Source: Alphaproteobacteria bacterium
GTDB taxonomy: Bacteria > Pseudomonadota > Alphaproteobacteria > CALMVH01
Assembly: GCA_965199335.1 (NCBI GenBank)
Contig: CBDAQZ010000001.1
Span: 71,102 to 135,101, forward strand
Length of the DNA stretch: 64,000 nucleotides
Direction of reading: 5' to 3'
Each line of letters starts with the position of its first letter. The first letter of the stretch is position 1. A program made the position numbers and the translations under genes. Below the pieces are notes generated by a model. The model saw nothing but the letters and a program-made list of their open reading frames with translations, had not been told where the DNA came from and searched no databases. Of this stretch, positions 3,099-57,696 are shown one piece after another.

Positions 3099-6000
3099 TT
3101 ACCAGTTGTACTTCACGCCCGCCTGGACCGTGTGATCCAGCTCGTGCTCGCGAATATCGGCATCGTATGACAGCGTCGCGCTCAGATTGGGGTTGAAGGC
3201 GGCGGTCATGCCGGCGCCAAGCAACGCGGCGTCCCGGCCCGGATGCACGCCCGAGATGCGGAAGCCCGCGGCGGGGGCGCCGGTGAAGCTTTCGCTCAAC
3301 GCCACATTGGTCGCCATGAAATCGTGCAGGTAGGCGGCTCTGATTTCGGGCGTCAGGGCGGTACCGTTCTTCGTCATCAGCGTCAGGTCTGCCCGTATCC
3401 CCGCCAGCGAACGCAGGGCGTTCAGGTTCGTGCCGTTGGTGTCGAAGTCCAGCCCGGCGACCGGCGAGCCGCTGGTGGCGTACCGGTTCTGGTGGATGTT
3501 GTCGTATTCGACGCCGATACGCGGCACCAGCGTCAGCTTGCCGCTGGTCAGTCCCTGCGGAACCGAGAAAGCATGGCTCAGTCCTGCCTCGGCGCTTAGC
3601 TCGTCGCCGTCATGGCGGGATGTCTGCTGGTAGCCCGTACCCGATGCCAGCGGCAGGTAGTCGCTGTCGTGATAATCGTTGAAGGCGTAGCCGACCGCGG
3701 CATCGAACACCATCGGGATGGGGTTCAGCTTGGCGCTGCCGTAAAGAGTGGCGCGGTAGGTATCGATATTGTTCTCGCCATTATCGCCGCTCAGGTTGAA
3801 GTCGGTATGCTCGTAGGCGACCGCGGCACCGATCAGCACGCCGGGTGCGACTTTCGTGTCGATGCCGCCGACGATGCCACCGGTGCGGTACTGGAATTCG
3901 GAGAAGCCGCTTTCGCCGCCGGTCTCGCCCAACACGCCGTAGCCGTGGACCCACAGGCTGGCCTGGTCTGCGCGCGTAGGGTTGCTGCCGCTGCAAGGGC
4001 CGAACATGGATTCGTCGGTCCTGCCCACAGGAACGTCGAACGTGCCGGGCAGGCCGGTCATCGCCATGCGCGTGGTGGTCAGGCCCTGGCATTCGTTCAT
4101 GCGCTCGACGATGAAATTCTGGAAGCTGGTCAGATTGGCAAGGTCGATGGTGCCGATATCGGCACGCAGCTCACCCAGCGCGCCTGCGACCAGCGCGCGC
4201 GGCGCATCGGCAAGCGAAGGACCGAAGATGTTGACCAGACCCTCGGCGAAGGCGCTGCTCGGCGCTACGCCCGGCAGGATCGACTTGATCGCGCCATCGA
4301 CGTTGCTGGTGTTCGGTGTCGAAGTCGCGCCCGGCGGCGGGGCCGCAAATATGGCTTCCGGACTGGTCACCGTCAGCTCTACCGCGTTCGGCAGATACGT
4401 CTCGGTGAAGAACGTCCCGGTGGAGGTCGCCGTGGCAGTGGCGAACTGGCCAGTGATGCCGTTGTTCGCGGTCAGGACGGTATATTGCTTGCCCAAGGCA
4501 TAGCTGCCTGGATCGTTGACGATCGAAAGCGTGCCGTTCAGCGCGGCGGTGCCGTTCACGGCCAGGACGCTGTTGCTGGTCGGGGTGACCCTGATCGTCA
4601 GGACGCTGTTCTGCGCCTGCGTGTAGTTGCCGTTGACGGTCAGCGCACCGATCGCCGTGCCGGGATTGACAGTGCCGTTATTGGTCAGCGCGCCGACGAT
4701 CGTGCCGTAGCCCATCAGCGTGCCGCCGCTGGCCACGGTCACCGGGCTGGTCAGCATCGCGGCCGAACCGGGCGTATCGCCTACCTGAAGAGTGCCTGCC
4801 GAGACGGTCGTACTGGCGAAGCTGCTGGCATTGTTCAGGGTCAGCGATCCGGCCGTGGACTTGATGAGCGCGCCGGTGCTCGAGACGGTTCCGGTAAAGG
4901 TGCCGGCATCGGCCGTCAGCGTACCGCCTGTCGAGGTGATCGCACCGCTGCCGGAAAGGGCGGACGCCTCTTGGTCGAAGCCGTTCATGGCAAAGGTCGC
5001 GCCGCTGGCGATGGCGAGGCCGGCGGGCCCGGCGGCATTGCTTGCGCCGAGCGCCAGCGTGCCGGCGTTGACGTTGGTCACGCCGCTATAGGTGTTCGCG
5101 CCGGACAGCGTCAGCGTACCCGCCGTGTTCTTGATCAGGTTGCCCGCGCCGCTGTAGACGCCCGAGAACGTACCGGATGCGACGGTCAGCGCGCCGCCGG
5201 TGGTTGTGACCGCACCCGACCCGGTCAAGGCGGTGACAGTCTGGTTGAAAGTGCCTAATGCCACCGTGCCCGCATTGCCGACCGCCAGCGTACCCGCGGC
5301 GATCGCATTGTCGACGCCGAGCGCCAGCGTGCCACCGTTCGCGTTGGTGCCGCCGCTATAGGCGTTGCCGGCGTTGGTCAGGGTAACGGTGTGCGTGCCT
5401 GCTGTGTTCAATGCACCGGTACCCGTCAACGCGCCGCTATAAGTATAGGAATTGCCGAGGCTGGTCAGCGTGCCGCCGCCGGCCGCAAGCGTCGCCGCAT
5501 TTCCGATCGTGATGCCGGCAGCCGATGCCCCCAGTGCGCCGCCGTTGAACGTCACGATGCCGCTACCCAGCGAGGCATTGTTGCCGGCGTTGATCGTGCC
5601 GGCGTTGATCGTGACCGCGCCGGTATAACCGGTTGCGCCGCTAAGGGCCTGCGTGCCGGTGCCGTTCTTGATCAGCGCACCGGTTCCCGTGATCGTACCT
5701 GCGTAGGTGTAGGCGCCACTGCCTGCCAGTGTAAGTGTGCTGGCGCCCGCCAGAACGGAACCGGCGTTGTTGCCGTTCAAACCGTTGATGGTCGGACTGA
5801 AGCCGTTTAGGTTCACCACGGCCGCCGGACCGTTCACGTTCACCGTTCCGGTGCCGAGCGCGGCGACGTTGGCGTAGGTCGCCGTCGTATTGCTGTTGAT
5901 GAAGGCACCGCCGGTAAAGGTGTTCGCGCCCGAGACGGATACGCTGCCGGTACCGGTCGAGGAGGACAGGATCAGCCGTCCTGCACCGCTTACGACGCCC

Positions 6001-7454
6001 GATAGCGTATCCGCGTTGCCGTTGGTATCGACGGTGCCGTTGCCGGTCAGCGTTATATTGTTGCTGATCGTGGTTCCGGCGCTCGTCTGGATCGTGCCGC
6101 CCGCGCCGCCGAAGGTGATGGCGCTGCCAAGGTCGCTGGCGTTGGTGACTCCGGCCAGCGTTGCCGCGTTGTTGATCGTCAGGGCGCCGGTATAGTTGTT
6201 CGCGCCCGAAAGCGTAACCGTGCCGCCCAGCACCTGCACCGCGCCGGCGCCGCTGATAGCGCCCGAGTACGTGCCCGTACCGGTGTTCGTGAACTGAAGC
6301 GTTCCTGCATCCGCTACGCCGTTGTTGATCGGCAGGCTGGCAGTGGTGACGTTCAACGTACCGCCCGAATTGATGACCGAGCCGCCGGTATAGGTGTTCG
6401 TCCCTGTCAGGGACAATGTACCGGTGCCGCCATAAGTCACGCTGCCGGATCCCGAGATGACGCCGGCAAAGGTGCTGCTGCCCGAACCGTCCACCGTCAG
6501 GGAATTCGCGCCCAGCGCCAGCGTGCTGGTCGAATCGCCGCTCAGATTGTTCAGCGTCTGGCTGAAGCCGTTGAAGTTGAACGAGCCGTTGTTGGTGAAG
6601 CTGACACCGCTGGATTGCGCCAGCGTGTTGGCGCTCCCCGCGACCAGGGTGCCACCTGTTATGGTGGTCGAACCCGTATAGGTGACCGCCTGCGTCAGGG
6701 TCAGCGTGCCACCTGTCAGGGCGAAGTTGCTGCCCGCGCCCGAGATGACGCCGTCATAGGTCGTGGTCGACCCCGCGCCGCCGACCGACAGGTTGGAGCC
6801 GGTGCCGCCCAGCATGATCTTTTCCGAGCCGCCGCTGGTATCCGAGATCGAGCCGATGATGTTCGTACCGGTCGTCTGGCTTAAATCCAGCGTGCCGCCG
6901 GCGCTGCTGTAGGCGCCCATGATCGTGGCTGCATTGCCGTTGACGATCAGCGAGCTGTTGCCGATCGAAACGCTGCCGCTGAAAGTCAGGTTGCCGTTCG
7001 TGGTATTGAAGCTTTCACCACCGGTCGAGGTGTTGGTCAGCGTTCCGATGGTCAGCGTCGACCCCGTGCCGGTCAGATCGAACGTCTGGTTGGCCGTGGA
7101 CGAATTCGTCAGCGTACCGATATTGAACGAAACCGCGTTGCCTTCGAGGAAGGTGTATGAGACGCCGCCGTTGAACAGCAGGGTGTTGAGCGGATTGCTG
7201 GTATTGGCAAAGGTGATCGCCGACGTCTTGGTGACCGCCGCGGAGTTTCCGAACACCGCAGTATCCGCCGCGCCCGGGGCGTTGCCGGTATCGTAGTTGC
7301 TGCCGAGGTTGAAATTGCCGTTGCTGGTAGTCGAACCCGCCCCATCATACGTATCTGTCGCCGCCATGGCTTCCATGGGTGATCCAACGGCGACAAGCGT
7401 TAATGCAGTGCCCGCGAGAAGGATGGTCTGGAGGCGGCGGCTGAAACGGGGCAT
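3099..7454 (-). CDS. Type Va autotransporter (passenger with PATR-type G/T/S-rich beta-helix repeats plus C-terminal beta-barrel translocator)
   Basis: 1451 aa. Signal peptide, then dozens of GTGTLTLSGANTYTGGT-like repeats. The C-terminal roughly 280 aa is a beta-domain ending ...VKYNW; a terminal aromatic is typical of autotransporter barrels. Confidence 0.9.
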   Translation of the reverse strand: MPRFSRRLQTILLAGTALTLVAVGSPMEAMAATDTYDGAGSTTSNGNFNLGSNYDTGNAPGAADTAVFGNSAAVTKTSAITFANTSNPLNTLLFNGGVSYTFLEGNAVSFNIGTLTNSSTANQTFDLTGTGSTLTIGTLTNTSTGGESFNTTNGNLTFSGSVSIGNSSLIVNGNAATIMGAYSSAGGTLDLSQTTGTNIIGSISDTSGGSEKIMLGGTGSNLSVGGAGSTTTYDGVISGAGSNFALTGGTLTLTQAVTYTGSTTITGGTLVAGSANTLAQSSGVSFTNNGSFNFNGFSQTLNNLSGDSTSTLALGANSLTVDGSGSSTFAGVISGSGSVTYGGTGTLSLTGTNTYTGGSVINSGGTLNVTTASLPINNGVADAGTLQFTNTGTGTYSGAISGAGAVQVLGGTVTLSGANNYTGALTINNAATLAGVTNASDLGSAITFGGAGGTIQTSAGTTISNNITLTGNGTVDTNGNADTLSGVVSGAGRLILSSSTGTGSVSVSGANTFTGGAFINSNTTATYANVAALGTGTVNVNGPAAVVNLNGFSPTINGLNGNNAGSVLAGASTLTLAGSGAYTYAGTITGTGALIKNGTGTQALSGATGYTGAVTINAGTINAGNNASLGSGIVTFNGGALGASAAGITIGNAATLAAGGGTLTSLGNSYTYSGALTGTGALNTAGTHTVTLTNAGNAYSGGTNANGGTLALGVDNAIAAGTLAVGNAGTVALGTFNQTVTALTGSGAVTTTGGALTVASGTFSGVYSGAGNLIKNTAGTLTLSGANTYSGVTNVNAGTLALGASNAAGPAGLAIASGATFAMNGFDQEASALSGSGAITSTGGTLTADAGTFTGTVSSTGALIKSTAGSLTLNNASSFASTTVSAGTLQVGDTPGSAAMLTSPVTVASGGTLMGYGTIVGALTNNGTVNPGTAIGALTVNGNYTQAQNSVLTIRVTPTSNSVLAVNGTAALNGTLSIVNDPGSYALGKQYTVLTANNGITGQFATATATSTGTFFTETYLPNAVELTVTSPEAIFAAPPPGATSTPNTSNVDGAIKSILPGVAPSSAFAEGLVNIFGPSLADAPRALVAGALGELRADIGTIDLANLTSFQNFIVERMNECQGLTTTRMAMTGLPGTFDVPVGRTDESMFGPCSGSNPTRADQASLWVHGYGVLGETGGESGFSEFQYRTGGIVGGIDTKVAPGVLIGAAVAYEHTDFNLSGDNGENNIDTYRATLYGSAKLNPIPMVFDAAVGYAFNDYHDSDYLPLASGTGYQQTSRHDGDELSAEAGLSHAFSVPQGLTSGKLTLVPRIGVEYDNIHQNRYATSGSPVAGLDFDTNGTNLNALRSLAGIRADLTLMTKNGTALTPEIRAAYLHDFMATNVALSESFTGAPAAGFRISGVHPGRDAALLGAGMTAAFNPNLSATLSYDADIREHELDHTVQAGVKYNW

Positions 7455-7634: not shown

Positions 7635-8564
7635 ATGTCTCAGCCCGATCGTCGAACAGTCCTGCGTCTCATGGGCGCTCTCAGCGTTGTGGCATTTGCC
7701 GGTGAGTCGCCGCTGGGCGCGCAATATGACTGGCGCCATGATGGGCCGGAAACCAGACCCCATGCTCCTGTCGCCGCGAAGCCGCACAAGGAAACTATCC
7801 AGGGCCGCCCCTTCTGGACCGGGACCGAAGAAGCCAAGGCCAGCGCGCGGGTAACGATGGAAGGGTGGGTGTTGCAACCCAGCGTCGATACGCGCCAGAG
7901 CATGGAGATTTATTCGGAGCGCCATCCGCTTCTGGGCGGTCTTGCTCAGCTTGTCGGCGGCGGCGGTGTTTTTGCGCATCTGTATTTCGGCATTCACGAT
8001 GCGAAATCGTCGATCTATGTCCATGGCTTCAACATCGACCCGGACGGCAATCGGCTGGAAGCCTTCGATCCAGGCGGCACGCTCAAGATGGTGGCGCTGA
8101 CGCCAAGGCAAAGCGAGGATGACCGCCAGAGGCATGGCCACAGGCCTTTGCCGCATCAGGCGCTCGATAGCGTTCAGGTCGGTTCATCGGCACAGTTGCT
8201 GGGCCGTATTCTCGATCTCGGGGCGGCGGTCAATCGGGCGGATATTCCTTATCATATGTTGCTGACGAATTCGAACGGGCTGGCGGCGGCGGTGTTCAAT
8301 ATTGTCCAGCCCGGACGTACCGATTGCTCGACCCATAGCTGCCCGGCGTTGCTGGCTGCTGGAGGGGGCCATCTCGTTCCCGGCGTCGATTCCGGCATCG
8401 CGGCAAAGGTCGGCAAGCTGGGTCGCGTGTATGAAAGCCTGGCGCTTAGCGGCGTCGGAATGATCGACCTGGCCAGCCGGTTCAATCAGGAGTCCAACCT
8501 GCAGATACTGGCCAACCTCGACCGGGCGCCTGTTCGGGCGCAAGTCCTGGGCTTGAACACCTAA
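7635..8564 (+). CDS. Hypothetical exported protein, possible Tat substrate
   Basis: 309 aa. The N-terminus [19 protein letters not shown] resembles a twin-arginine signal. A GGAG motif lies upstream. The overlapping minus ORF 7560-8156 has junk composition. Confidence 0.5.
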
Positions 8565-8637
8565 CCGCTCATTCCTGTATTGTCGCCGCCTGCTGCCCGT
8601 GGCACACCCATGGGGCAGCATCACAGGGACATGGCGC

Positions 8638-10065
<1,428 letters not shown>

Positions 10066-10108
10066 AAATGCTATGGTATAACTACATATCTAAATAAGAG
10101 AATTCATC

Positions 10109-10837
10109 ATGGCACAAACATCTCGGCCAGATTTAATCTTGTTCGACATCGGACAGGTAATTGTGCCATATGATGATCATAAGTTGATTGAAAATATCGC
10201 TGCTCGTTGTAGCGATCCCGAAGCTTCCACTGAGATCAAATCATATTTAACGACCGACTGGAAAGCTTTACAGACAGGGGCAATGGCAGACGAACGATTA
10301 CATCAGAAGTTCGTAATCGGTCTTGGTTTCGATGGTAGTTTTAAGGACTTTCAGCAAGTCTGGTGTGCTCACACAGCACGCGATCCTGCGATGGAAACCC
10401 TTGTACGTGAAGTCGAGAAGACGACGGCAACAGCTTTGTTATCCAATGCAACAAAAATCCACATGCAACATTTTACCTCCAATTATGAGTTGATTGGGCG
10501 GATGAATTCTAATGGCAATGCTCATTTTTCCTGTTTGATGGGAGCCGTAAAACCTGACAGAGAAGCGTTCGAAATTACTCTTGATAGTGAAAGCCGGCGA
10601 TTGGGACGCCATATAAGTCCGGAAAAGACGCTTTTCATCGATGACATTTCGCAGATGACAGAGGGCGCAAAAGCAGTTGGAATGGATACAATTGTTTTCA
10701 CTGGAATTGCAGCTTTGATACCCGCTCTCGTGTCTCGCTGTGTACCAATCGGAGTGGCTGGCGTTAATCTACCAACCACCGCTTGGGCAGGAGCACGTGC
10801 CGGTATTATTGGTCATGATTCTACCAAGCCAATCTGA
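10109..10837 (+). CDS. HAD-superfamily hydrolase (variant motif I FDIGQV; motifs SNAT / K / LFIDD present)
   Basis: 242 aa. HAD motifs II-IV are recognisable. GC is about 42%, against about 63% in the flanks. Confidence 0.7.
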   Translation: MAQTSRPDLILFDIGQVIVPYDDHKLIENIAARCSDPEASTEIKSYLTTDWKALQTGAMADERLHQKFVIGLGFDGSFKDFQQVWCAHTARDPAMETLVREVEKTTATALLSNATKIHMQHFTSNYELIGRMNSNGNAHFSCLMGAVKPDREAFEITLDSESRRLGRHISPEKTLFIDDISQMTEGAKAVGMDTIVFTGIAALIPALVSRCVPIGVAGVNLPTTAWAGARAGIIGHDSTKPI

Positions 10838-10887
10838 CTCCATGACACGCGCAGTTTAAACCAGTATAAGGTCTGCAAAACAGCGTC

Positions 10888-11391
10888 ATGGAGACCGGCA
10901 TGATAAGAAAAATCTATAACAGGATAGTGAACCTGTCTCCTGCGGTCGTGCTGGTTATCGGCCTCGCTTTCATGCTTTCGGGTTTCTTTTTCCAGACCGA
11001 TCTTGGCTACGACGATGCGCCGATTGCAACCTCCTACTCCTTGTCTCTCGGGGCAAACTGCGAGAGCGACTACAAGCAATGCCATGTCAGGCCGCGGGTT
11101 GTAGTGGGCTATCGTATCGAAACCACCCGCAACGAGGTCGTCGCCTTCATGCCCGGCATGGACGGGCTGATGGACAAATACAACGAATGCACCATCTGGA
11201 GCGCATCCGACTGGCAGTGCGAGGCCGGCCGTATCTCGATGCATGACGGGCTTATCACTCACAATGAGTTCGAGACCGACCACGATATCTATTATGTCCC
11301 GAAGATCGCCTGGAAAATGGCGAAGCTGCACATCCTGCCGCTGAATTCCGTGCGTCATTCGCCCCCGCCGAAATCGGTTCACGGCACCTAG
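10888..11391 (+). CDS. Hypothetical membrane-anchored protein (N-terminal TM helix, four Cys in the C-domain)
   Basis: 167 aa, in the same low-GC island. The antisense ORF 10813-11727 has junk composition. Confidence 0.5.
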   Translation: METGMIRKIYNRIVNLSPAVVLVIGLAFMLSGFFFQTDLGYDDAPIATSYSLSLGANCESDYKQCHVRPRVVVGYRIETTRNEVVAFMPGMDGLMDKYNECTIWSASDWQCEAGRISMHDGLITHNEFETDHDIYYVPKIAWKMAKLHILPLNSVRHSPPPKSVHGT

Positions 11392-11443
11392 CCGGAACCA
11401 AATTGCTTCACCGGTCTTTCTCTTCTCGAACCAGGAGGAAGAC

Positions 11444-11659
11444 ATGGCGGAAAAGACCGTAAAAGCCGGCGACAAAGTCAGCTGGAGCTCTTCGCAAGGC
11501 GAGGTGAAGGGTACGGTAAAGAAGAAACTGACCTCACCCATCAAGATCAAGGGGCATGCGGTCAAGGCATCGCCGGATAATCCAGAATACCTCGTCCAGT
11601 CCGACAAGACCGGCGCAAAGGCTGCACACAAGCCGGGAGAGCTGAAAAAAACCAAGTAA
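11444..11659 (+). CDS. DUF2945-family small protein (hypervirulence-associated TUDOR-like fold)
   Basis: 71 aa. KAGDKVSWSSSQGEVKGTV...KGHAVKASPDNPEYLVQSDKTGAKAAHKPGELKK matches the DUF2945 consensus (KxGDxVxW...G.V.G....KGH...AS.D.P.Y...SDKT...AAHK). A strong AGGAGGAAG ribosome-binding site lies 5 nt upstream. Confidence 0.65.
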   Translation: MAEKTVKAGDKVSWSSSQGEVKGTVKKKLTSPIKIKGHAVKASPDNPEYLVQSDKTGAKAAHKPGELKKTK

Positions 11660-11896
11660 GAGGCAGATACATTCTGTAAGTATTCAGATAAAATTTTACT
11701 CAAAACATAAATATAGATGGAAATCACTTAACTAAGTATTGAGTATATATATTTTAGGTTGTCTTGCGCGGCTGAATCAGATTCCTCGTTTGGGGCCCAA
11801 GTGGCAAAAATGCACTTAATGTGTATTCCAGGCAACGAATCGCGGTACTGCCGATTTTGCTTTACAGCCCGATTGTGACTGTGCCAGAACCCCGCC

Positions 11897-12340
11897 ATGA
11901 AATTGAAACTGTTGCGCCTGGCCTGTGCCTTCATCGCCGCATCGTTCGCAACCCTTGTCAGCGTCCCGGCCCGTGCCGATACGCCCGACAGCAAGAAAGT
12001 CGAAACGGGCATCGCCAGCTACTATGGCGATGACTGGCAGGACCGCCGCACCGCCAACGGCGAGCGGTTCAACCCCGAGGCTTTTACGGCGGCACACCGC
12101 AATCTGCCGCTTGGCGCCTGGGTCAAGGTGACAAACCTGATCAACGGGCGTAGCATCAACGTCCGAATAAACGATCGCAACGCGCCATCGCATACCCGAA
12201 TCATCGATCTGTCAAAGGCCGCCGCCGATGCCGTTGGCATGCTGCAGGCCGGCTTGGCGAAAGTGAAGATCGAGCGCATACTGCCGCCGGGCCATCGAAT
12301 CGCGATGCACGAGCCGCCGCACAAGCCCGTTTACAATTAG
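11897..12340 (+). CDS. rlpA: Septal ring lytic transglycosylase RlpA-family protein (DPBB domain)
   Basis: Signal peptide, then GIASYYG...TANGE.F...TAAH..LPLG..V.VTNL.NGRS..VRINDRNAP; this is the RlpA double-psi beta-barrel signature. Confidence 0.85.
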   Translation: MKLKLLRLACAFIAASFATLVSVPARADTPDSKKVETGIASYYGDDWQDRRTANGERFNPEAFTAAHRNLPLGAWVKVTNLINGRSINVRINDRNAPSHTRIIDLSKAAADAVGMLQAGLAKVKIERILPPGHRIAMHEPPHKPVYN

Positions 12341-13514: not shown

Positions 13515-13829
13515 CTATTCCTTCTTGCCCTTGCGGGCCATCGCGGCGCTTTCGCGCTTCAACGGCCGGCTCAGCGGGCAGGCCTCCTGAACGAAGCTTG
13601 CCAGCGTGTTGACCAGATTGTCGCCCACCTGCGCATAATAGACAAATTGCCCTTCCTTGCGGCTGGTGACCAGACCCGCGTTTTCCAGGATCGACAGGTG
13701 TTGCGAAATCGAGGGCTTCGACATTTCGAAGCGCGATGCGATTTCGCCCGCGCTCAGCTCGGTATGCGCCAGATAGGCGAGGATCTGACGGCGAACGGAA
13801 GAGGAAAGGGCTTCGAAGACGCGTTGCAT
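13515..13829 (-). CDS. ArsR/SmtB-family HTH transcriptional regulator
   Basis: 104 aa. The winged-HTH core is LAYLAHTELSAGEIASRFEMSKPSISQHLSILENAGLV. There is no metal-binding Cys pair in alpha3. It is operonic with the downstream lyase-family gene (2-nt spacing). Confidence 0.85.
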   Translation of the reverse strand: MQRVFEALSSSVRRQILAYLAHTELSAGEIASRFEMSKPSISQHLSILENAGLVTSRKEGQFVYYAQVGDNLVNTLASFVQEACPLSRPLKRESAAMARKGKKE

Positions 13830-13880: not shown

Positions 13881-13900
13881 ATTTAGTTACTAGACTAAAT
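13881..13900. promoter_or_regulatory. Perfect 7-bp inverted repeat ATTTAGT-N6-ACTAAAT; candidate ArsR operator
   Basis: The sequence is ATTTAGTtactagACTAAAT. It lies 52 bp upstream of the arsR-family start and overlaps the first ATG of the divergent desaturase ORF. Confidence 0.45.
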
Positions 13901-13913
13901 GATACGAGTTTGC

Positions 13914-14813
13914 ATGACCTGCCTTTCGACGGCCCGCCTGATTGCCGAACCGGAAACGTCCGCGATCGATGGCGTTGTCGTCTGGGCACCGGTGCGGTCA
14001 TTGTGGGTAGGTGGCATGACCCTGGCAGCGCTTGTTTTATCGCCCTTTTACACGACACCTGGCGCGATCCTGCTCTTTCTTGTCACAAGCGCGGTGACAT
14101 TATGCGCCGGGCATTCCATCGGTTTGCATAGGCTCCTGATCCACCGCAGCCTGTCCGCCCCCTTATGGGTCGAGCGTGTGCTGATCTATCTCGGCACTCT
14201 GGTCGGGATGGCGGGGCCGCTCGGCATGGTCAGGTTGCACGACACCCGCGACTGGGCGCAGCGGCAGACGCACTGCCACGACTTGCATGCGCATCGTGCC
14301 GGTTGTTTTCGGGATGCGTGGTGGCAGATGCATTGCCGTCTTGTCCTGGTGCATCCGCCGCGCTTCGTGCCGGAAGCGCATCTGGTGGACGATCCTTTCA
14401 TAGGCTGTCTGGAAGCAACCTGGATGCTGCAGCAGCTGCCCTGGGCCATCCTGTTCTTCTGTATCGGGGGCATGCCGTGGCTGGTCTGGGGAATTGCAAT
14501 GCGTGTCGCCGTGTCGCTGACCGGTCACTGGCTGGTGGGACATATCACACACAGGCGCGGCCATCAGGGCTGGGCCGTGGATGGCGTCGCCGTACAGGGC
14601 TACAACCTGCCGCTCGCTGCGCTGGTCACGTTCGGCGAGGCTTGGCACGGCAATCATCACGCCTGGCCGGACTCGGCGCGGTTGGGTGTCGAGAAGGGGC
14701 AGGCCGATCCAGGTTGGTGGATACTCCTGGTCATGCAGCGATTGCGGCTGGTATCCGACCTCAGGCAGCCATCGGATTTGACGCCGCGCGAGGGGCTGCG
14801 CCGGATAGATTGA
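13914..14813 (+). CDS. Membrane fatty-acid desaturase (acyl-CoA/acyl-lipid Delta9-type; His boxes HRLLIH, HDLHAH, HGNHHAWP)
   Basis: Three histidine-box motifs and hydrophobic segments are present. The start could be 13899, but 13914 avoids the operator palindrome. Confidence 0.8.
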   Translation: MTCLSTARLIAEPETSAIDGVVVWAPVRSLWVGGMTLAALVLSPFYTTPGAILLFLVTSAVTLCAGHSIGLHRLLIHRSLSAPLWVERVLIYLGTLVGMAGPLGMVRLHDTRDWAQRQTHCHDLHAHRAGCFRDAWWQMHCRLVLVHPPRFVPEAHLVDDPFIGCLEATWMLQQLPWAILFFCIGGMPWLVWGIAMRVAVSLTGHWLVGHITHRRGHQGWAVDGVAVQGYNLPLAALVTFGEAWHGNHHAWPDSARLGVEKGQADPGWWILLVMQRLRLVSDLRQPSDLTPREGLRRID

Positions 14814-32618: not shown

Positions 32619-33440
32619 ATGGCCATGTTGTTACCAGACCGGGCCATCGTCGCCGTTTCGGGCGAGGATCGCATAGCATTCCTGCAGGGACTCATCACCA
32701 ACGACGTCGACAGCCTGCGCGACGGCGAGGTCGCCTATTCCTGCCTGCTGACCGCCCAGGGCCGGTTTCTGCACGATTTCTTCGTCATTGCCGCCGGCGA
32801 CCGCTTGCTGTTCGACTGCGAAGCCGGCCGTCGCGACGACCTGATTCGCCGCTTGAAACAGTTCCGTCTGCGGGCGAAGGTGGATGTGACGGACGAAATG
32901 GCAGCCTATTCCGTCCATTGTCATTCCCGCGAAGGCGGGAATCCAGGATTGGATACGGGATATGCCTACGCCGATCCACGGCATGTCGACCTTGGCTACC
33001 GATCTATCGTTCCGGCTGGTTTAATCCTTGATTCACGCTTTCGCGGGAATGACGGGGAGTGGGAAGGCTACGAACGTATCCGCATTACTCTCGGCGTTCC
33101 CGACGGCAGCCGCGACATGGTGCCGGAGCAGGCCTTGCTGCTGGAAAACAACATCGACCGCCTGAACGGCATTTCCTTCACCAAGGGGTGCTATGTCGGG
33201 CAGGAAGTCACGGCGCGCATGCACCACAGGGGCGGGGTGAAGAAACGCCTGACGCCGGTGCGTATGGAAGCCGCCGCGCCACCGGTGGGAATGCCGGTTA
33301 CGATAGATGGCACCGAAATCGGCGAGATGCGATCGAGTTGCGGCGATCTGGGACTGGCATTGTTGCGGGCCCGTGCGGAAGAGGGCCAGATACATTGTGG
33401 TGATGCAAAGCTGTATGTGCTGAACCACACATCCACCTGA
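32619..33440 (+). CDS. ygfZ: tRNA-modifying folate-binding protein YgfZ (CAF17 family) carrying a 45-codon in-frame repeat insertion
   Basis: The KGCYVGQE signature (ISFTKGCYVGQEVTARMHHRG) is present. The low-complexity segment ...CHSREGGNPGLD...RFRGNDGE... is encoded by the palindromic element at 32919-33053. Confidence 0.85.
   Translation: MAMLLPDRAIVAVSGEDRIAFLQGLITNDVDSLRDGEVAYSCLLTAQGRFLHDFFVIAAGDRLLFDCEAGRRDDLIRRLKQFRLRAKVDVTDEMAAYSVHCHSREGGNPGLDTGYAYADPRHVDLGYRSIVPAGLILDSRFRGNDGEWEGYERIRITLGVPDGSRDMVPEQALLLENNIDRLNGISFTKGCYVGQEVTARMHHRGGVKKRLTPVRMEAAAPPVGMPVTIDGTEIGEMRSSCGDLGLALLRARAEEGQIHCGDAKLYVLNHTST
32919..33053. repeat. MITE/REP-like element (135 bp) with terminal inverted copies of a GTCATTCC-hairpin-GGAATCC unit, inserted in-frame in ygfZ
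   Basis: The left unit is tGTCATTCCCGCGAAGGCGGGAATCCAGG (32919-32948). The right unit is the reverse complement GTCATTCCCGCGAAAGCGTGAATC (33030-33053). 135 bp equals 45 codons. The antisense frame reads ...IPAFAGMT..., the known junk-peptide signature of this repeat class. Confidence 0.55.
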
Positions 33441-33442
33441 TT

Positions 33443-33527
33443 GTCATTCCGGTGCGTAGCACCGGAATCCATACCGCTGATAAAGGGAGGCACGACCGCA
33501 TGGATTCCGTGCTGCGCACGGAATGAC
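33443..33527. repeat. Second copy of the same palindromic element family (two hairpin units in inverted orientation) in the ygfZ/glyS convergent spacer
   Basis: GTCATTCCGGTGCgtaGCACCGGAATCCAT ... ATGGATTCCGTGCtgcGCACGGAATGAC. It starts 2 nt after the ygfZ stop and ends 7 nt before the glyS stop. Confidence 0.6.
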
Positions 33528-33536
33528 GATTTTTTT
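33505..33536 (+). terminator. Candidate intrinsic terminator for ygfZ formed by the repeat hairpin plus a T7 run
   Basis: TTCCGTGC-tgc-GCACGGAA is followed by TGACGATTTTTTT. The spacer to the T-run is slightly long. Confidence 0.4.
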
Positions 33537-35619
33537 ATCCTTCGATCTTCGAGAAATCCGCGATGGCGTCGAACGTTCCGGTGATCGCTGCCAACAGCTT
33601 CAGGCGATTCTGACGCAGCTTGGGATCGGGATCGTTGACCAAGACCTTGTCGAAGAAAGCGTCGAGGGGCAGTCGCAGCTTTGCCAGGACGTCCATGCTC
33701 TCTTCGTATTTGCCTGCCTGAGTTAGTTCACGGGCTTTGGAGAGGCTAGAATCCAAAATAAGGCCTAATTCTTTTTCCGCAGATTCAACGAGTAGCCGAG
33801 TTTCAAAATCGAGCCCATAATCTTGGTCTTTCTTATTCTCCTTTTCCAATATGCTGCTGGCTCGTCGGTAAGCGGTAAGCAAGGGGCCGCCATTCGCACT
33901 GAGAAATTTCTGTAAAGCCTGAGCCCTCTGAACGATAAGTAGCAAATTGTCCCCCGAATTTGCCCCTAGTAGAGCCTCAAGCAGATCATGACCAATACCT
34001 TCATCCCTTAACTGAACTTTCAAACGGTCGGCAATGAAAGCAAAAACTTTTTCCGCTACCGTATCTGGAACTAAGTTGGGAATAAGTTGGGAATAATAAG
34101 ATAGCGCAGCGCTGCAAACTGAAACCAGAGAAAGCTCTAGGCTATTCTCGCGAATCAGCCGGATAATTCCAAGTGCGGCACGACGCAGGGCGTAGGGGTC
34201 GCGGCTGCCGGTGGGCAGCTCTTCGATGGCGAAGAAACCGACCAGCGTATCCAGCTTGTCGGCAAGGGCGACGGCAACGCTGACCGGCTTGGTCGGGCAG
34301 GCATCGCCCGGGCCGGCGGGGCGGTAATGATCGGCGATCGCGTCGGCCACGTCGTCGCCGAGGCCTTCCTTGCGGGCGTAATATCCGCCCATGATGCCTT
34401 GCAACTCGGGGAATTCGCCAACCATGCCCGAGACAAGGTCGGCCTTGGCCAGCAGGCCTCCCTTGCGTGCCAGGTCAGCATCGCCATTTGTGTGGCTGCT
34501 GATGCGTTCTGCAAGATTGGCGATACGATCCGCTTTCTGGCGCACCGTGCCCAACTTCGCATGGAACGTTACCTTCTCCAGCTTCGGCAAACGCTGTTCC
34601 AGCGTCGTCTTCAAATCCTGGTCCCAGAAGAACCGGGCATCGGCAAGGCGGGCGCGCAATACGCGTTCGTTGCCGGCGACGATGGTTGCGCCGCCGTCGT
34701 TGCCGGGTACATTGGCGACGATGGCGAATTTCGCCGCTGACGTGCCGTCCCTGTTCGCCAGCGTGAAATATTTCTGGTTCTCGCGCATCGTCACCTGCCG
34801 CACTTCCTTTGGCAGGTCCATGAATTCCTGGTCGATCGAACCGAGCAGCACCGTCGGCCATTCGACCAGGCCGGTGACTTCCTCCAGCAGGCCGTTATCG
34901 GGCACCAGCTCCAGCCCCGCCTTTGTCGCCGCCGCATGCAGCTGGCGTGCGATTTCCGCCTTGCGCTCGTCGCGGTCCAGGATGACGTATCGCGTCCTCA
35001 GCTTGGCGAAATAATCTTCGAAATCATGGACGTGAAACGGCTCCGGCGCCAGGAAGCGGTGGCCGTGGCTGACATTGTTGCCGGTATAGGTAAGCGTCGG
35101 CGGAAATTCCAGCTTCGCCGTGATCGGCTGGCCGCCGAAGACCATCATGATGTTGTGCAGCGGGCGCACCCAGCTCAGCGGGTGCAGGCTCCAGCGCATC
35201 GATTTGGGCCAGGGGAAGTGCGTGATGATCTGCGCGACGATCTCGGGCAGCAGGTCCGCAGTGGGCTGGCCGAATTTCTTGGTGACGGCGTACCAGAACA
35301 CACCCTTGCCGCTATCGCGCTGCTCGGCCTGTTCCAGGCTGTCGATGCCCGCGCCTTTCAGGAAGCCCTGGATCGCGGCATCGGGCGATCCGACCTTCGG
35401 GCCCTTGCGTTCGTCCAGGCTGTCGGGCTGTTGCACTGCCAGGTCGCGCACGACCAGTGCCAGCCGGCGCGGGGTGACGTGGGTTTCGCAGGCGCTGAAA
35501 TCCAGCTTCGCCTCCTGCAGCCGTTCGCAGAACAGGCGCCTCAGGTCTTCCGCCGCCTGTTTTTGCATGCGGGCGGGGATTTCTTCGCCGAACAGTTCCA
35601 GCAGGAATTCGGAGTGCAT
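33535..35619 (-). CDS. glyS: Glycyl-tRNA synthetase beta subunit
   Basis: 694-aa full-length GlyS. The start makes an ATGA overlap with the glyQ stop. The 3' 450 bp (about 33700-34150) has markedly lower GC. Confidence 0.95.
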   Translation of the reverse strand: MHSEFLLELFGEEIPARMQKQAAEDLRRLFCERLQEAKLDFSACETHVTPRRLALVVRDLAVQQPDSLDERKGPKVGSPDAAIQGFLKGAGIDSLEQAEQRDSGKGVFWYAVTKKFGQPTADLLPEIVAQIITHFPWPKSMRWSLHPLSWVRPLHNIMMVFGGQPITAKLEFPPTLTYTGNNVSHGHRFLAPEPFHVHDFEDYFAKLRTRYVILDRDERKAEIARQLHAAATKAGLELVPDNGLLEEVTGLVEWPTVLLGSIDQEFMDLPKEVRQVTMRENQKYFTLANRDGTSAAKFAIVANVPGNDGGATIVAGNERVLRARLADARFFWDQDLKTTLEQRLPKLEKVTFHAKLGTVRQKADRIANLAERISSHTNGDADLARKGGLLAKADLVSGMVGEFPELQGIMGGYYARKEGLGDDVADAIADHYRPAGPGDACPTKPVSVAVALADKLDTLVGFFAIEELPTGSRDPYALRRAALGIIRLIRENSLELSLVSVCSAALSYYSQLIPNLVPDTVAEKVFAFIADRLKVQLRDEGIGHDLLEALLGANSGDNLLLIVQRAQALQKFLSANGGPLLTAYRRASSILEKENKKDQDYGLDFETRLLVESAEKELGLILDSSLSKARELTQAGKYEESMDVLAKLRLPLDAFFDKVLVNDPDPKLRQNRLKLLAAITGTFDAIADFSKIEG

Positions 35620-36696: not shown

Positions 36697-37400
36697 CAGG
36701 CCCAGAGGTCTATGGCGGCACGGCCACGCAGGATCGCGTCGGCTTCCTCGGTATATGTGCCGTCATTCCGGTGCAGCACAAGCCCTGCTGCCAGACGCAG
36801 GGCCGTTTTACGGCCCTTGATGCCGCCGACGATCACGCGATTCGCATCCTCGCCCAGCCTGCGCCACAGGGGAAACACCACCAGCGCGCCCAGCCGGGGT
36901 TGGAACTCCGCCAGCAACTCGTCCAGGCGGTCGGCGCGATGGACGAAGATCACCGATCCGTTGTCGGACACGCGGCGACAGGCGAACTCGACCCAGTCGG
37001 GCAGCTTTGCCTTGCCTTCGTGGTTGGCGATCGACGGTTCGCCCGTGCCGTAGCCTTCCCGCAGATAAGGTGGGTTACAGATGACATGGTTGAATCGCCT
37101 CTGTTTCAACTCTGCCGGGGGCGCCATGATGCAGCCTTCGAAAATCGTCAGTCGCCTGCCAACATCGTTGGCGTCGGCATTGGTGCGCGCCAGTTCCGCC
37201 ATATGCGGCTGGATTTCTATGCCGACGGCCGTGCTACCGGTACGTTCCATTACGCAGAGCGCGGCCGTACCTACGCCGCAGCCGGCGTCGAGTACGGTGT
37301 CGTCAGGTTGCGCAGGGCAGGCGGCGGCCAGAATGAGAGGGTCGATGGCCGCCCGGTAGCCGTCCTCGGGCTGCGTCAGCGCGATACGGCGATCCAGCAT
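36696..37400 (-). CDS. tRNA (adenine-N6)-methyltransferase-like SAM-dependent methyltransferase (YfiC/TrmN6 family, NPPY motif)
   Basis: VLDAGCGVGTAAL SAM-binding motif and NPPY. 234 aa. Confidence 0.8.
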   Translation of the reverse strand: MLDRRIALTQPEDGYRAAIDPLILAAACPAQPDDTVLDAGCGVGTAALCVMERTGSTAVGIEIQPHMAELARTNADANDVGRRLTIFEGCIMAPPAELKQRRFNHVICNPPYLREGYGTGEPSIANHEGKAKLPDWVEFACRRVSDNGSVIFVHRADRLDELLAEFQPRLGALVVFPLWRRLGEDANRVIVGGIKGRKTALRLAAGLVLHRNDGTYTEEADAILRGRAAIDLWA

Positions 37401-37405
37401 AAATC

Positions 37406-37822
37406 CTAGAAGTCGGGATTTTGGTGGCCTTGCGGACCCGCTGAGTTTCGTTTGCCCGAAACCGCGACCAAATGGCTTATGTGAGTGGAGAGTTCTGAAT
37501 ACACGTCCAGATTTGGAGCTGCTGGCGAAATCACGGTATGTTTTGATTTCAATTGGCTAACGATCTGTTGCGAGGGAGTGGTACCCAGGTTCAACGCGTC
37601 GTACATTGTAAAATCGACCATCGGTCCGCTGGGGTCGAAGAAAAGCTGCCGTGATCCGACATGCTCGAGCATCGGGCTGCCGTTTTCCAGAGCCTTGCTC
37701 CAGATAGTGGCTGCCTCCTCATCGCTTACGGGTTCAGTCGAGCCTGAACAATCTATGGCGTTGTTCAGCATCGCCGATATCAAAGCCCAGGTCGGTACCC
37801 CGGAAACATCTGTTGCAGACAT
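37406..37822 (-). CDS. Hypothetical protein (lower-GC gene)
   Basis: 138 aa. An AAGAGG ribosome-binding site lies 6 nt upstream. It sits in operon position ahead of the methyltransferase. The plus-strand alternative 37485-37847 starts with GTG and has no ribosome-binding site. Confidence 0.45.
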   Translation of the reverse strand: MSATDVSGVPTWALISAMLNNAIDCSGSTEPVSDEEAATIWSKALENGSPMLEHVGSRQLFFDPSGPMVDFTMYDALNLGTTPSQQIVSQLKSKHTVISPAAPNLDVYSELSTHISHLVAVSGKRNSAGPQGHQNPDF

Positions 37823-37930
37823 GGTTCAGCCTCTTTTTAATGACTGATTAATACATGGGCGTTCGTGCATAGTCCAGAAAATTGTAAGCGGCGCCAACTC
37901 ACTTGAATACATAGTTTTGCCCTGTATGTT

Positions 37931-38959
37931 TTGCTTATGACCGCTGCCGACAATGTCGCCCGTACACACGCCAAGCCTGCCAGCGTCAATGCGCTGGACG
38001 AGCTTACCGCGCTGGTAGCCGACGACCTTGCCCGCGTCAACGCATTGATCCTGCAGCACATGCAATCGCCCGTGGCGCTGATTCCCCAGCTTGCCGGCTA
38101 TATTCTTTCCGCCGGCGGAAAGCGCCTGCGCCCGGTGCTTACCCTCGCTTCGGCGCGTTTGTGCGGCTACGAGGGCGATCGTCATCCCGGCCTGGCTGCC
38201 GCCGTGGAACTGATCCACACCGCGACCCTGCTGCATGACGATGTCGTGGACGAAAGCGATCGCCGCCGCGGCCGCGCCTCGGCCAATGCCGTGTTCGGCA
38301 ACGAGGCGAGCGTGCTGGTCGGCGACTTCCTGTTCAGCCGCGCTTTCGAGCTGATGACCAGCGATGGCTCCATCGAGGTGTTGCGCATCCTGTCCAACGC
38401 CTCTGCCGTGATTGCGGAGGGCGAGGTGCTGCAGCTGGCCACCGCCAACGACCTCGCCACGACCCAGGAAGCTTATTTCAAGGTAATCGAATCGAAGACC
38501 GCCGCCCTGTTCGCGGCCGCCTGCGAAGTCGGGGCCATCGCCGCCGGCACGCCCGATTACGCGTCCGGCCTCAGCGTTTACGGGCGCAAGCTTGGCCTTG
38601 CCTTCCAGATCGTCGATGACGTGCTGGACTACGTTGCCAGCGAGGCCCGGCTGGGCAAGGCGATCGGTGACGATTTCCGCGACGGCAAGGTGACCTTGCC
38701 CGTGATCCTGGCCTATCAGCGCGGCAGCGAGGGCGAACGCGACTTCTGGCGCCGCTCGATCGAGGATCAGGAGCTTGACGACGACGCGCTGGATTACGCC
38801 ATCGCCCTGCTGCGCCAGCACCGGGCGCTGGACGAAAGTTTCGACATCGCGCGCGGCTTCGTGGTCGAGGCAAAGGCGGCGCTTCTGCCACTGCCGACCG
38901 GGCCTTTCCGCTCGGCCATGACCCGCGTCGCCGATTTCTGCGTCGATCGCGATTTTTAA
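37931..38959 (+). CDS. ispB: All-trans polyprenyl (octaprenyl/decaprenyl) diphosphate synthase
   Basis: FARM LLHDDVVDESDRRRG and SARM QIVDDVLD motifs are present. The antisense 388-aa ORF is junk. Confidence 0.9.
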   Translation: MLMTAADNVARTHAKPASVNALDELTALVADDLARVNALILQHMQSPVALIPQLAGYILSAGGKRLRPVLTLASARLCGYEGDRHPGLAAAVELIHTATLLHDDVVDESDRRRGRASANAVFGNEASVLVGDFLFSRAFELMTSDGSIEVLRILSNASAVIAEGEVLQLATANDLATTQEAYFKVIESKTAALFAAACEVGAIAAGTPDYASGLSVYGRKLGLAFQIVDDVLDYVASEARLGKAIGDDFRDGKVTLPVILAYQRGSEGERDFWRRSIEDQELDDDALDYAIALLRQHRALDESFDIARGFVVEAKAALLPLPTGPFRSAMTRVADFCVDRDF

Positions 38960-39022: not shown

Positions 39023-39099
39023 CGGGATGTAGCTTAGCCTGGTAAAGCGCCTGCTTCGGGAGCAGGAGAGCGGAGGTTCGAATCCTCTCATCCCGACCA
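39023..39099 (+). tRNA. tRNA-Pro (anticodon CGG)
   Basis: CGGGATG acceptor stem pairing with CATCCCG (the C1:G72 pair is characteristic of tRNA-Pro). Anticodon loop TTCGGGA. T-arm GGTTCGAATCC. The CCA is encoded. Confidence 0.85.
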
Positions 39100-55417: not shown

Positions 55418-56350
55418 ATCGGACACGATCATAGTCATCATCATCTGCCGGCCAATTCCCGTACGCTCTGGCTGGCGCTCGGCCTGACCCTGGCATTCTG
55501 CGCCGGGGAGGCCGTGGTCGGGCTGGTCACAAACTCGTTGGCCCTGATCTCCGATGCCGGTCACAATCTGGGCGATGCGCTGGCGCTGGGCTTGTCCGGC
55601 TATGCCGCCTGGGTAGGGGGCAAGCCCGCGACCTCAAAGCATACCTATGGCTACCACCGCGCCGCAATCCTGGCGCCCCTGTTCAACGCCGCGACGCTGG
55701 TCGTCACCGCGCTTGTGATCGGCGCGGCGGCGGTCGGGCGACTGTTCGCGCCACAGCCGGTCGAGGCCGGGCCCATGATCTGGGTCGCGGCGGCGGCGCT
55801 GGTTCTGAACACGGTCATCGCCCTGTTCCTGGCGGGCGGTGTCAAACACAGCCTGAACGACCGGTCGGTGTTCGTGCACATGGTCGGCGATGCGTTGTCC
55901 AGCCTTGTCGTGATCGGGGGCGGCATCGTGATCCGCTATACCGGCTGGCAGGCGGTCGACCCGCTGGTATCGCTGGCCATCGCCGCCTTCATCCTGGTCT
56001 CCGCCAGCGGCATTCTGCGCCAGACCATCGGCATCCTGATGGAGAACGCGCCGCCCGGCCTTGACGTGGCGGCGCTGGTCAGGACCATCCGCGCGGTAGA
56101 GCCGGTGCAGACGGTGCACCACCTGCATGTCTGGTCGATCCGCGACGGCATGACGGCTTTAAGCTGCCATGTGACGCTGCCCGAGGCCTGCACACTGCGC
56201 GACTGCTCGGCCACGATCGCGGCGATCAACGCCCGGCTGCACGACGAGTTCGGCATCCATCACGCCACGATCCAGGCCGAGCTGGAAGGCCAGTGCGAAC
56301 CGGCGCACGAGGACGATGTATTCTGCGTCATGGAGACGCATGCGCACTAG
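55418..56350 (+). CDS. Cation diffusion facilitator (CzcD/ZitB-type) transporter; start codon ambiguous (ATC at 55418 behind a Shine-Dalgarno, or GTG at 55514 which would truncate TM1)
   Basis: The in-frame upstream sequence encodes GHDHSHHH-LPANSRTLWLALGLTLAF (the classic CDF His-rich N-terminus plus TM1) but has no ATG/GTG/TTG. GGGAG lies 8 nt before the ATC at 55418-55420. Confidence 0.8.
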   Translation: MGHDHSHHHLPANSRTLWLALGLTLAFCAGEAVVGLVTNSLALISDAGHNLGDALALGLSGYAAWVGGKPATSKHTYGYHRAAILAPLFNAATLVVTALVIGAAAVGRLFAPQPVEAGPMIWVAAAALVLNTVIALFLAGGVKHSLNDRSVFVHMVGDALSSLVVIGGGIVIRYTGWQAVDPLVSLAIAAFILVSASGILRQTIGILMENAPPGLDVAALVRTIRAVEPVQTVHHLHVWSIRDGMTALSCHVTLPEACTLRDCSATIAAINARLHDEFGIHHATIQAELEGQCEPAHEDDVFCVMETHAH

Positions 56351-56532
56351 GGCGAAAATGACGGAACGACCCCATGTACAGTAGGTAAGTCGTTGATATA
56401 GCTATCTGTTTTTAGCGGGCTTGCGAACTCTGCCTATTTTTAAAACAATTTATATTTATCAAATACATAGAGATAAATCTTTAATTTTTGCATCAGCTTG
56501 AAATGGTCCTGGAACAATTCAGGATGAGGCAG

Positions 56533-57696
56533 TTAAAACTCCACTATTCCTTCCGGCGTGTCGATCAGCAGGCGATTGGGGCCGTCCGATTTTTCCGTGC
56601 GCCCATAGATGCGGGCCGCGATGTCGAAAGCGCCCGCGGCGTCGATGATGCTTTGTGCGCGGTCCTCGTCGCAGACGATTTCCATGCGAAAGCCCATGTT
56701 GAAGCTGCGCAGCATCTCGCGGTACGGCAGGGCACGGGTTTCGCGCAGGAAGCGGAACAGGGGGGCTTCGGGGAACAGGCCGTCTTTTATATACCGTATG
56801 CCGCTGCCGAAATTCAGGCACTTGGTCTGGCCGCCGCCGGTGTTGTGGAAGATGGCGGAGATGCCGTCCAGCCCCCGGTCCAGGATTGCCTTGATCACCG
56901 GCGCATAGGTGCGGGTAGGGGACAGCAGCGCCTCGCCGACGGTCATCCCCAGGCCCGGCGCGAGGTCGGACAGGGCGTAGTCGCCGACATAGGCCAGGTC
57001 GTGGATCTCGGGCGCATAGGCTTCCGGGCTGCCGTCGCGGTAGGTCCGGTTCAATACCTCGTGCCGGATCGCGGTGATGCCGTTGCTGCCGATGCCGGAA
57101 TTGGGCCGGTCCTCGTAACTGGCCTGTCCGTCGGAGGCGAGCCCGACGATCACCTGGCCCGCGCGCACTTTGGCGGCATCGATGAAATCGGCGCGGCGCA
57201 TGCGGACGGTCAGCGTGGAATCGACGATCACCGTGCGCACCAGGTCGCCGACATCGGCAGTCTCCCCGCCCGCGATGGTAATTTCCACGCCGTGTTCGCC
57301 CAGCATGGCGACGACCTTGCTGTAGCCGGCGACAATCTGGGTCACAACCTCGCCCGGGATCAGCATCTTGTTGCGGCCGATCGTGTTCGACATCACGAAC
57401 GGCCCTGTGGCGCCGACGCACAGCAGGTCGTCGGTATTCATCACCAGCGAATCCTGCGCGATGCCCTGGAAGATCGCGGCGTCGCCATGCTGCTTGTAAT
57501 GCAGATAAGCCAGGATGGACTTGGTCCCAGCGCCGTCGGCATGGCTCAGCAGGCAATGCGCGACCGAACCGCCCAGTATGTCGGGCATGGCGTGGCAGAA
57601 CGCCCCGGGAAACAGCCCCTTGTCCAACTGCGCCACGGCGGCTTTGACATCGGGCTTGTCCGGCGAAACGCCGCGGGCTTCGTAGGTGACGGTCAT
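56533..57696 (-). CDS. PurM-superfamily (AIR synthase-related) protein of unknown function
   Basis: 387 aa. An N-terminal HADGAGTKS motif is analogous to PurM DGVGTK. It is not PurM/PurL/ThiL/HypE/SelD by N- or C-terminal features. Its start makes an ATGA overlap with the gntK stop. Confidence 0.65.
   Translation of the reverse strand: MTVTYEARGVSPDKPDVKAAVAQLDKGLFPGAFCHAMPDILGGSVAHCLLSHADGAGTKSILAYLHYKQHGDAAIFQGIAQDSLVMNTDDLLCVGATGPFVMSNTIGRNKMLIPGEVVTQIVAGYSKVVAMLGEHGVEITIAGGETADVGDLVRTVIVDSTLTVRMRRADFIDAAKVRAGQVIVGLASDGQASYEDRPNSGIGSNGITAIRHEVLNRTYRDGSPEAYAPEIHDLAYVGDYALSDLAPGLGMTVGEALLSPTRTYAPVIKAILDRGLDGISAIFHNTGGGQTKCLNFGSGIRYIKDGLFPEAPLFRFLRETRALPYREMLRSFNMGFRMEIVCDEDRAQSIIDAAGAFDIAARIYGRTEKSDGPNRLLIDTPEGIVEF

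Follow-up and report, generated by a model that had tools for sequence, protein, structure and literature searches.

A low-GC interval between gatB and rlpA in an alphaproteobacterium very probably combines one foreign HAD-family gene with native DNA

We analyzed a stretch of 64,000 nucleotides from an Alphaproteobacteria bacterium (contig CBDAQZ010000001.1, positions 71,102 to 135,101 of the forward strand; the whole 64-kb stretch is called the window here, and its own numbering is used throughout), in which three small genes stand in DNA of low GC content between gatB and rlpA. The genes encode a HAD-like hydrolase, a membrane protein with conserved cysteines, and a DUF2945 mini-protein. A preliminary description of this DNA had suggested one horizontally acquired island comprising all three. 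Our analysis indicates instead that the low-GC stretch very likely mixes native DNA with one small foreign insert, and that a single foreign HAD gene occupies, in all likelihood, a variable slot in the conserved array running from gatB to rlpA. The membrane-protein gene and the DUF2945 gene are ancestral residents of that array rather than cargo, because they are syntenic in all seven relatives compared and have native GC content at third codon positions (GC3).

Results

Extent and composition of the low-GC interval

The three co-oriented open reading frames (ORFs) proposed between gatB and rlpA were confirmed, within the following array.

8599-10065, plus strand: gatB, encoding Asp/Glu-tRNA amidotransferase subunit B, the left anchor (PF02934, 8.5e-119; PF02637, 1.5e-54; GC3 0.824)
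10066-10108, plus strand: AT-rich leader of 43 bp before the HAD gene, part of the probable insert (GC 25.6%)
10109-10837, plus strand: HAD gene, 729 bp, encoding a predicted YihX-like HAD-IA variant 3 phosphatase of 242 amino acids (GC 45.7%, GC3 0.399)
10838-10887, plus strand: spacer of 50 bp from the HAD stop codon to the membrane-gene start (GC 48%), the right edge of the probable insert, boundary approximate
10888-11391, plus strand: membrane-protein gene, 167 amino acids, native (GC 55.2%, GC3 0.744)
11394-11418, plus strand: candidate extracytoplasmic function (ECF)-type, EcfG-like promoter of the DUF2945 gene, reading GGAAC-N15-GT-CTT in the window
11444-11659, plus strand: DUF2945/Hva1_TUDOR mini-protein gene, 71 amino acids, native (PF11160; GC 53.7%, GC3 0.681)
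11660-11896, plus strand: intergenic region upstream of rlpA (5′ part, 11660-11770, GC 28.8%; 3′ part, 11771-11896, GC 51.6%)
11897-12340, plus strand: rlpA, encoding an RlpA-family lytic transglycosylase-like lipoprotein, the right anchor (TIGR00413, 5e-37; PF03330, 5.7e-22)

Mean GC content of the window is 61.6%, and its minimum falls in this interval at three scales: 10063-11862 at 1800 bp (48.1%, z = -5.3), 10039-10768 at 730 bp (44.2%, z = -5.0), and 10062-10361 at 300 bp (40.0%). The drop is genuine and exceeds chance fluctuation, and to this extent the low-GC island of the preliminary description stands. The drop is uneven, however, with 55-58% GC in 200-bp windows between 11000 and 11500. 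Codon-position analysis gave a native GC3 of 0.74-0.82 for ten neighboring genes, gatB, rlpA, cgs, arsR, orf304, and dgc among them; of the three genes of the interval, only the HAD gene is clearly anomalous, and its GC3 varies little from end to end (0.36-0.46 per 50 codons). The membrane-protein gene and the DUF2945 gene lie inside or close to the native range. Their reduced total GC arises at the first two codon positions and so reflects amino-acid composition; the DUF2945 protein contains 16 Lys among its 71 residues and carries a net charge of +9. In the closest relative (locus L001), the DUF2945 orthologue likewise has the lowest GC3 of its neighborhood (0.625, with neighbors at 0.74-0.89), and low GC3 is a trait of this gene family. 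The remainder of the drop is intergenic DNA, namely the leader at 10066-10108 and the AT-rich segment at 11660-11770.

Synteny in related loci

Relatives were found by a GatB scan of species-representative genomes, followed by a word-indexed and then a profile search with the membrane protein. In the GatB scan only L001 came close (88% identity by tblastn, 89% by blastp), all others being at most 75% identical; six further locus contexts were obtained from the contigs of membrane-protein family members. The comparison thus comprises seven related loci (L001, L081, L082, L084, L085, L086, and L087), or eight with the window, and GatB of the window is 86-89% identical to GatB of all seven. Downstream of gatB, the membrane-protein gene and then the DUF2945 gene follow in the same order in 8/8 loci, and the DUF2945 protein is 72-80% identical to the product of the same-position gene in every relative. 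In L001, L081, L084, and L086, rlpA comes after DUF2945, with or without a DUF3140-like gene between them. The HAD gene is absent from the locus in 7/7 relatives and, apart from distant HAD homologues, is missing from the 90 loci examined.

The junction between gatB and the membrane-protein gene, where the HAD gene stands in the window, differs from one relative to another. It is empty in L081, L082, and L086 (gap of -8 to +12 bp). An orphan protein of 282-284 amino acids occupies the junction in L001 and L084, the two copies being 50% identical to each other; the L001 copy has no Pfam match, and none is on record for the L084 copy. In L085 (4068-5004) and L087 (1013-1949), it holds an SMR (Multi_Drug_Res) transporter together with an HD_3/YfbR-like hydrolase. 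The junction is a variable slot. The slot cargo of the relatives has native GC3 throughout (0.65-0.90), and foreign composition occurs only in the HAD gene of the window. A search of the window for remnants of the relatives' cargo (orf282/284, SMR, and HD) found none, and nucleotide homology between the window and L001 resumes at 10981. As a separate observation, the orphan in the L001 slot has a signal-peptide-like N terminus.

These loci bear directly on the proposal that the HAD, membrane-protein, and DUF2945 genes form one acquired island of 1.7 kb bounded by AT-rich DNA. The genes are co-oriented and tightly spaced, and GC content in the window is lowest over the whole of 10063-11862, as such an island would have it. 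Against this, two of the three genes occupy the same place in 7/7 relatives with native GC3, the AT-rich DNA upstream of rlpA is conserved in L001, and no flanking repeats were found. For those two genes synteny refutes a three-gene island particular to this genome, and we consider the proposal exceedingly unlikely; the claim of horizontal acquisition holds for the HAD gene and fails for its two neighbors. The comparison of the gatB-rlpA interval in relatives, which the preliminary description had named as the check that could overturn it, overturns it for these two genes.

The AT-rich region upstream of rlpA

The very AT-rich right flank reported at 11660-11820 exists as far as 11660-11770 is concerned, but it marks no island border. 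In L001 the DNA upstream of rlpA is equally AT-rich (35-37% GC), and the 3′ part of the region contains the invariant sequence TGCTTTACA and other boxes common to the window, L001, and L081. Because of this shared AT-richness and these shared boxes, we take the region for native regulatory DNA. A DUF3140-like gene of about 120 amino acids follows DUF2945 in L001 (11139-11510), L081 (4451-4823, uncalled), and L086 (1638-2000). No remnant of it is detectable in the window, where the AT-rich segment 11660-11770 takes its place, and the gene is gone from L084 as well. An Rfam search of 9900-12100 returned nothing credible.

Acquisition of the HAD gene

The ancestral order in the clade would have been gatB, the membrane-protein gene, DUF2945, sometimes a DUF3140-like gene, and rlpA. 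In the lineage of the window, one gene and the AT-rich leader that belongs to it (about 10066-10887, approximately 0.8 kb) would have been inserted at the junction of gatB and the membrane-protein gene. The donor would have had a lower GC content, and the insertion was probably recent, its composition not yet having adjusted to that of the host. Once in place, the HAD gene may be co-transcribed with gatB and the membrane-protein gene. We limit horizontal acquisition to the HAD gene because its GC3 is 0.40, it is absent in all relatives, and its nearest homologue is only 46% identical.

Several observations weigh against an acquisition of this kind. Searches for direct and inverted repeats flanking the three-gene stretch gave chance-level matches only; the direct repeats that had been suggested between 10066-10108 and 11820-11896 did not materialize, the best candidate being an 11-nt match with 10/11 identical positions (10061 and 11803). 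No 7-mers are shared across both edges of the HAD gene. There is no tRNA near the insert, the sole tRNA of the window lying at 39023-39099, 27 kb away. No integrase was seen beside the locus, although the rest of the window was not searched systematically for integrases. Searches of phage DNA, viral contigs, and plasmid proteins returned no close relatives, and the evidence for a recent insertion is all compositional. Scans with PADLOC and PHROGs of the three proteins, and of an orphan ORF of 309 amino acids upstream of gatB, gave no matches. As for an integron cassette, no attC-like structure was visible by eye in the 50-bp spacer; attC sites and integrases were not searched with a dedicated tool.

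The lack of mobility marks would suit a different history, in which the HAD gene is an old resident lost by the seven relatives and owes its low GC to gene-specific mutation bias or selection; the slot is variable, and losses do happen, since it is empty in three loci. Such a history is very unlikely. A GC3 of 0.40, compared with about 0.78 for the genome, is far outside the native range and uniform along the gene, the closest homologue, at only 46% identity, comes from a contig of 49% GC, and independent loss or replacement would be demanded in every other lineage. An assembly artefact, that is, a chimeric join of about 0.8 kb from a lower-GC organism, would explain the sharpness of the compositional break, and the source does appear to be an environmental assembly, since its proteins turn up on one 530-kb contig and nowhere else. 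Yet the segment lies exactly between the gatB stop codon and the start of the membrane-protein gene, both of them intact, and contains a complete ORF with start and stop codons, and chimeras seldom insert a short piece and then regain perfect synteny; we regard an artefact as extremely improbable. Acquisition of a single foreign gene is the reading that we retain.

The HAD gene product

The HAD protein passes the NCBIfam model TIGR01509 (HAD-SF-IA-v3) with 33.5 bits (cut-off 29.4). Its best matches among solved structures are those of Escherichia coli YihX (2b0c, 8pno, and 8pne), the expect value (E) being 7e-08 when the sequence is searched alone and 2e-44 with the family profile. Two results speak against these assignments or restrict them: neither of the Pfam HAD models that had been proposed as a check, PF13419 and PF00702, matches the protein at E <= 0.1, and the YihX glucose-1-phosphatase equivalog model NF006991 scores 55.2 bits (E 7.3e-15), short of its cut-off of 295. 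By these profile scores, the protein is a member of the HAD-IA variant 3 (YihX-like) family and not a YihX orthologue. A word-indexed search of 5.8 billion proteins found no homologue except the protein itself; HMMER, run exhaustively over 1.84 billion representative proteins, returned 1471 matches. The nearest homologue (46% identical) is encoded on a 911-bp contig of 49% GC, and the next ones are at most 37% identical.

Motif conservation was assessed by aligning the protein with its 29 best relatives. All four HAD motifs are intact: motif I (F-D13-I-G15-Q-V17), motif II (S112), motif III (K148), and motif IV (D178-D179). Residues D13, G15, V17, K148, D178, and D179 are invariant in the alignment, and S112 is retained by at least 90% of the relatives. 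The preliminary description had singled out motif I as unusual for lacking the second Asp. The motif does read FDIGQV, within LILFDIGQVIV, but D-x-G-x-V is invariant in the family and aligns to FDLGNV of YihX. The seemingly aberrant motif I is thus the normal signature of the YihX-like branch, and it is compatible with activity.

We predict that the HAD protein is an intact, cytoplasmic, Mg2+-dependent phosphomonoesterase that would form an aspartyl-phosphate intermediate on D13 and would most likely act on a sugar phosphate. Two of its relatives, P0009 and P0012, stand in unrelated neighborhoods (polysaccharide genes in one case; a thiamine pyrophosphate enzyme, an aminotransferase, and a nucleotidyltransferase in the other), and because these contexts are unrelated, the substrate is narrowed no further than probably a sugar or small phosphomonoester. 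Particular to the HAD protein are a six-residue insert (RRLGRH) and a C-terminal extension of approximately 25 residues. The closest relative, P0006, has part of this extension as well, and we therefore suppose that the extension arrived with the gene.

The membrane protein

The second gene encodes, as described, a membrane protein with conserved cysteines. It has one N-terminal hydrophobic helix (residues ~13-35; Kyte-Doolittle 2.2), followed by a domain of about 125 amino acids with four Cys (C58, C65, C101, and C111) that are invariant in 10 homologues and with a strongly conserved DIYYVPKxAWKMAKLHILPL segment. The Cys domain is predicted to be periplasmic, because basic residues precede the helix, and disulfide-bonded. 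AlphaFold2 models were unusable, with a predicted local distance difference test (pLDDT) score of 39.6 for a 4-sequence alignment and 43.5 for a 10-sequence alignment; the N-terminal helix alone was confident. Word-indexed and then profile searches of 5.8 billion proteins recovered only 10 members of the family. The protein is a native, predicted single-pass member of an orphan family restricted to the clade.

DUF2945 and a candidate ECF-type promoter

The assignment of the third gene to DUF2945 is borne out: PF11160 matches the 71-amino-acid protein with 80.8 bits (cut-off 24.1; E 7.5e-23), covering profile positions 1-59/59. A search of solved structures by sequence gave no match. The Pfam family DUF2945 has been renamed after Hva1 and assigned to the Tudor clan (PMC6324024).

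Ahead of this gene, a GGAAC motif is conserved in position in 8/8 loci, 1-12 nt after the stop codon of the membrane-protein gene and 39-49 nt ahead of the DUF2945 start codon. In the relatives it lies at 10870 (L001), 4186 (L081), 1026 (L082), 5498 (L084), 5511 (L085), 1369 (L086), and 2489 (L087). The clade consensus is GGAAC-N15-GC(C/A)TT, and the other columns of the spacer are unconserved. Counted from GGAAC, position +16 is G in 7/8 loci, +17 is C in 6/8, +18 is C or A, +19 is T in 7/8, and +20 is T in 8/8. The layout is that of an ECF-sigma promoter and is similar to the alphaproteobacterial EcfG consensus, GGAAC-N17-20-GTT, for which published Sphingomonas melonis sites include GCATT, CATT, and AATT endings (PMC6599016). 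Two features count against a promoter here. The -10 element lacks its canonical G, reading C(A/C)TT rather than CGTT, and the motif occurs three times in the window compared with 2.67 expected, which is not above chance. A promoter and terminator consensus scan of 9900-12000 stayed at or below shuffled expectation. Given the positional conservation, we put the chance that DUF2945 is under EcfG-type or other ECF control at about even. The preliminary description called DUF2945 proteins often stress- or virulence-associated, and the conserved ECF-type motif lends indirect support to the stress association.

The presence of two unrelated phosphohydrolase folds in the same slot (HAD in the window, HD YfbR-like in L085 and L087), together with the conserved ECF-type motif, could be taken to mean that the junction repeatedly recruits phosphohydrolases that form a stress module together with the membrane protein and DUF2945. 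However, the slot is empty in three relatives and holds a secreted orphan without a hydrolase signature in two, HAD and HD hydrolases are very common genes, and the relatives of the HAD protein stand in unrelated contexts; we consider such recruitment highly improbable. A wider proposal would make the junction a dedicated exchange site for cargo of one or two genes, free of repeats and with no nearby integrase, and would join the phosphohydrolase, the four-Cys protein, and an ECF-controlled DUF2945 protein, sometimes with the DUF3140-like protein, in an envelope or stress module beside rlpA. This, too, strikes us as distinctly unlikely, and the gain of one gene in a variable slot remains the preferred account.

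Other features of the window and of related genomes

A tblastn search found gatA absent from the whole 64-kb window. The gene is directly upstream of gatB in L001, L081, and L085, and L084 likewise lacks it there. Upstream of gatB in the window are the orphan ORF of 309 amino acids (7635-8564), then an autotransporter-like ORF of 1451 amino acids (3099-7454, minus strand). The 309-residue orphan has an RRTVL motif resembling a Tat signal and no match in Pfam, NCBIfam, PADLOC, or PHROGs. Beyond rlpA, an ArsR-family regulator (13515-13829, minus strand) and a membrane ORF with weak FA_desaturase likeness (13899-14813, plus strand) separate the cystathionine-synthase-like and diguanylate cyclase genes, which adjoin in L001. 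The next-lowest GC patches of the window are at 33374-34103 (49%), 56310-56609 (44%), and 37378-38107 (53%); the first falls in an ORF of 694 amino acids (33535-35619, minus strand). Among the GatB matches, the locus L002 (NZ_VCCH02000061.1), titled 'Mycobacterium sp. KBS0706', encodes a GatB 75% identical to that of the window, and its organism name looks wrong.

Discussion

The event described here would be an ordinary single-gene acquisition, that of a divergent YihX-like HAD phosphatase gene by a variable intergenic slot. Our result narrows an island call that had reached too far, and it changes little for biology at large. Of more specific use are an orphan four-Cys membrane-protein family that, in one little-known clade of Alphaproteobacteria, always accompanies gatB and DUF2945, and a conserved ECF-type motif that offers a testable handle on the timing of expression of bacterial DUF2945/Hva1_TUDOR proteins.

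In its layout, the locus resembles small genomic islets and other variable slots, in which differing cargo occupies one junction between syntenic genes; here one cargo is of foreign composition. It differs from them in that no integrase, tRNA, insertion-sequence element, attachment-site-like sequence, or direct repeats were seen, and in that the insert of the window is a single gene of approximately 0.8 kb.

The closest characterized counterpart of the HAD protein is YihX (HAD4; PDB 2b0c, 8pno, and 8pne), an active alpha-D-glucose-1-phosphate phosphatase of E. coli (PMC4251788). The two agree in fold family and length class, in a motif I of the form F-D-[LI]-G-x-V without the second Asp, and in the retention of motifs II (SN), III (KP), and IV (DD). 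They differ in that the HAD protein is only 22.6-23.2% identical to enterobacterial yihX by tblastn and carries the six-residue insert and the C-terminal extension of about 25 residues.

The candidate promoter of DUF2945 shares with the EcfG promoters of the general stress response (GGAAC-N16-20-(C)GTT) the GGAAC at -35, a ~17-18-nt spacer, and a -10 element that is T-rich and ends in TT, and departs from them in the -10 sequence noted above. No EcfG, NepR, or PhyR genes were seen, though no search aimed at them was made. The DUF2945 protein itself, which matches the full PF11160 domain, resembles fungal Hva1 (hypervirulence-associated protein 1) of Cryptococcus neoformans, which has been tied to virulence and to NADPH metabolism (PMC5008624). 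That link belongs to the fungal protein, and the gene examined here differs from its fungal namesake in its setting as well, standing beside gatB and rlpA on the chromosome and preceded by a putative ECF promoter.

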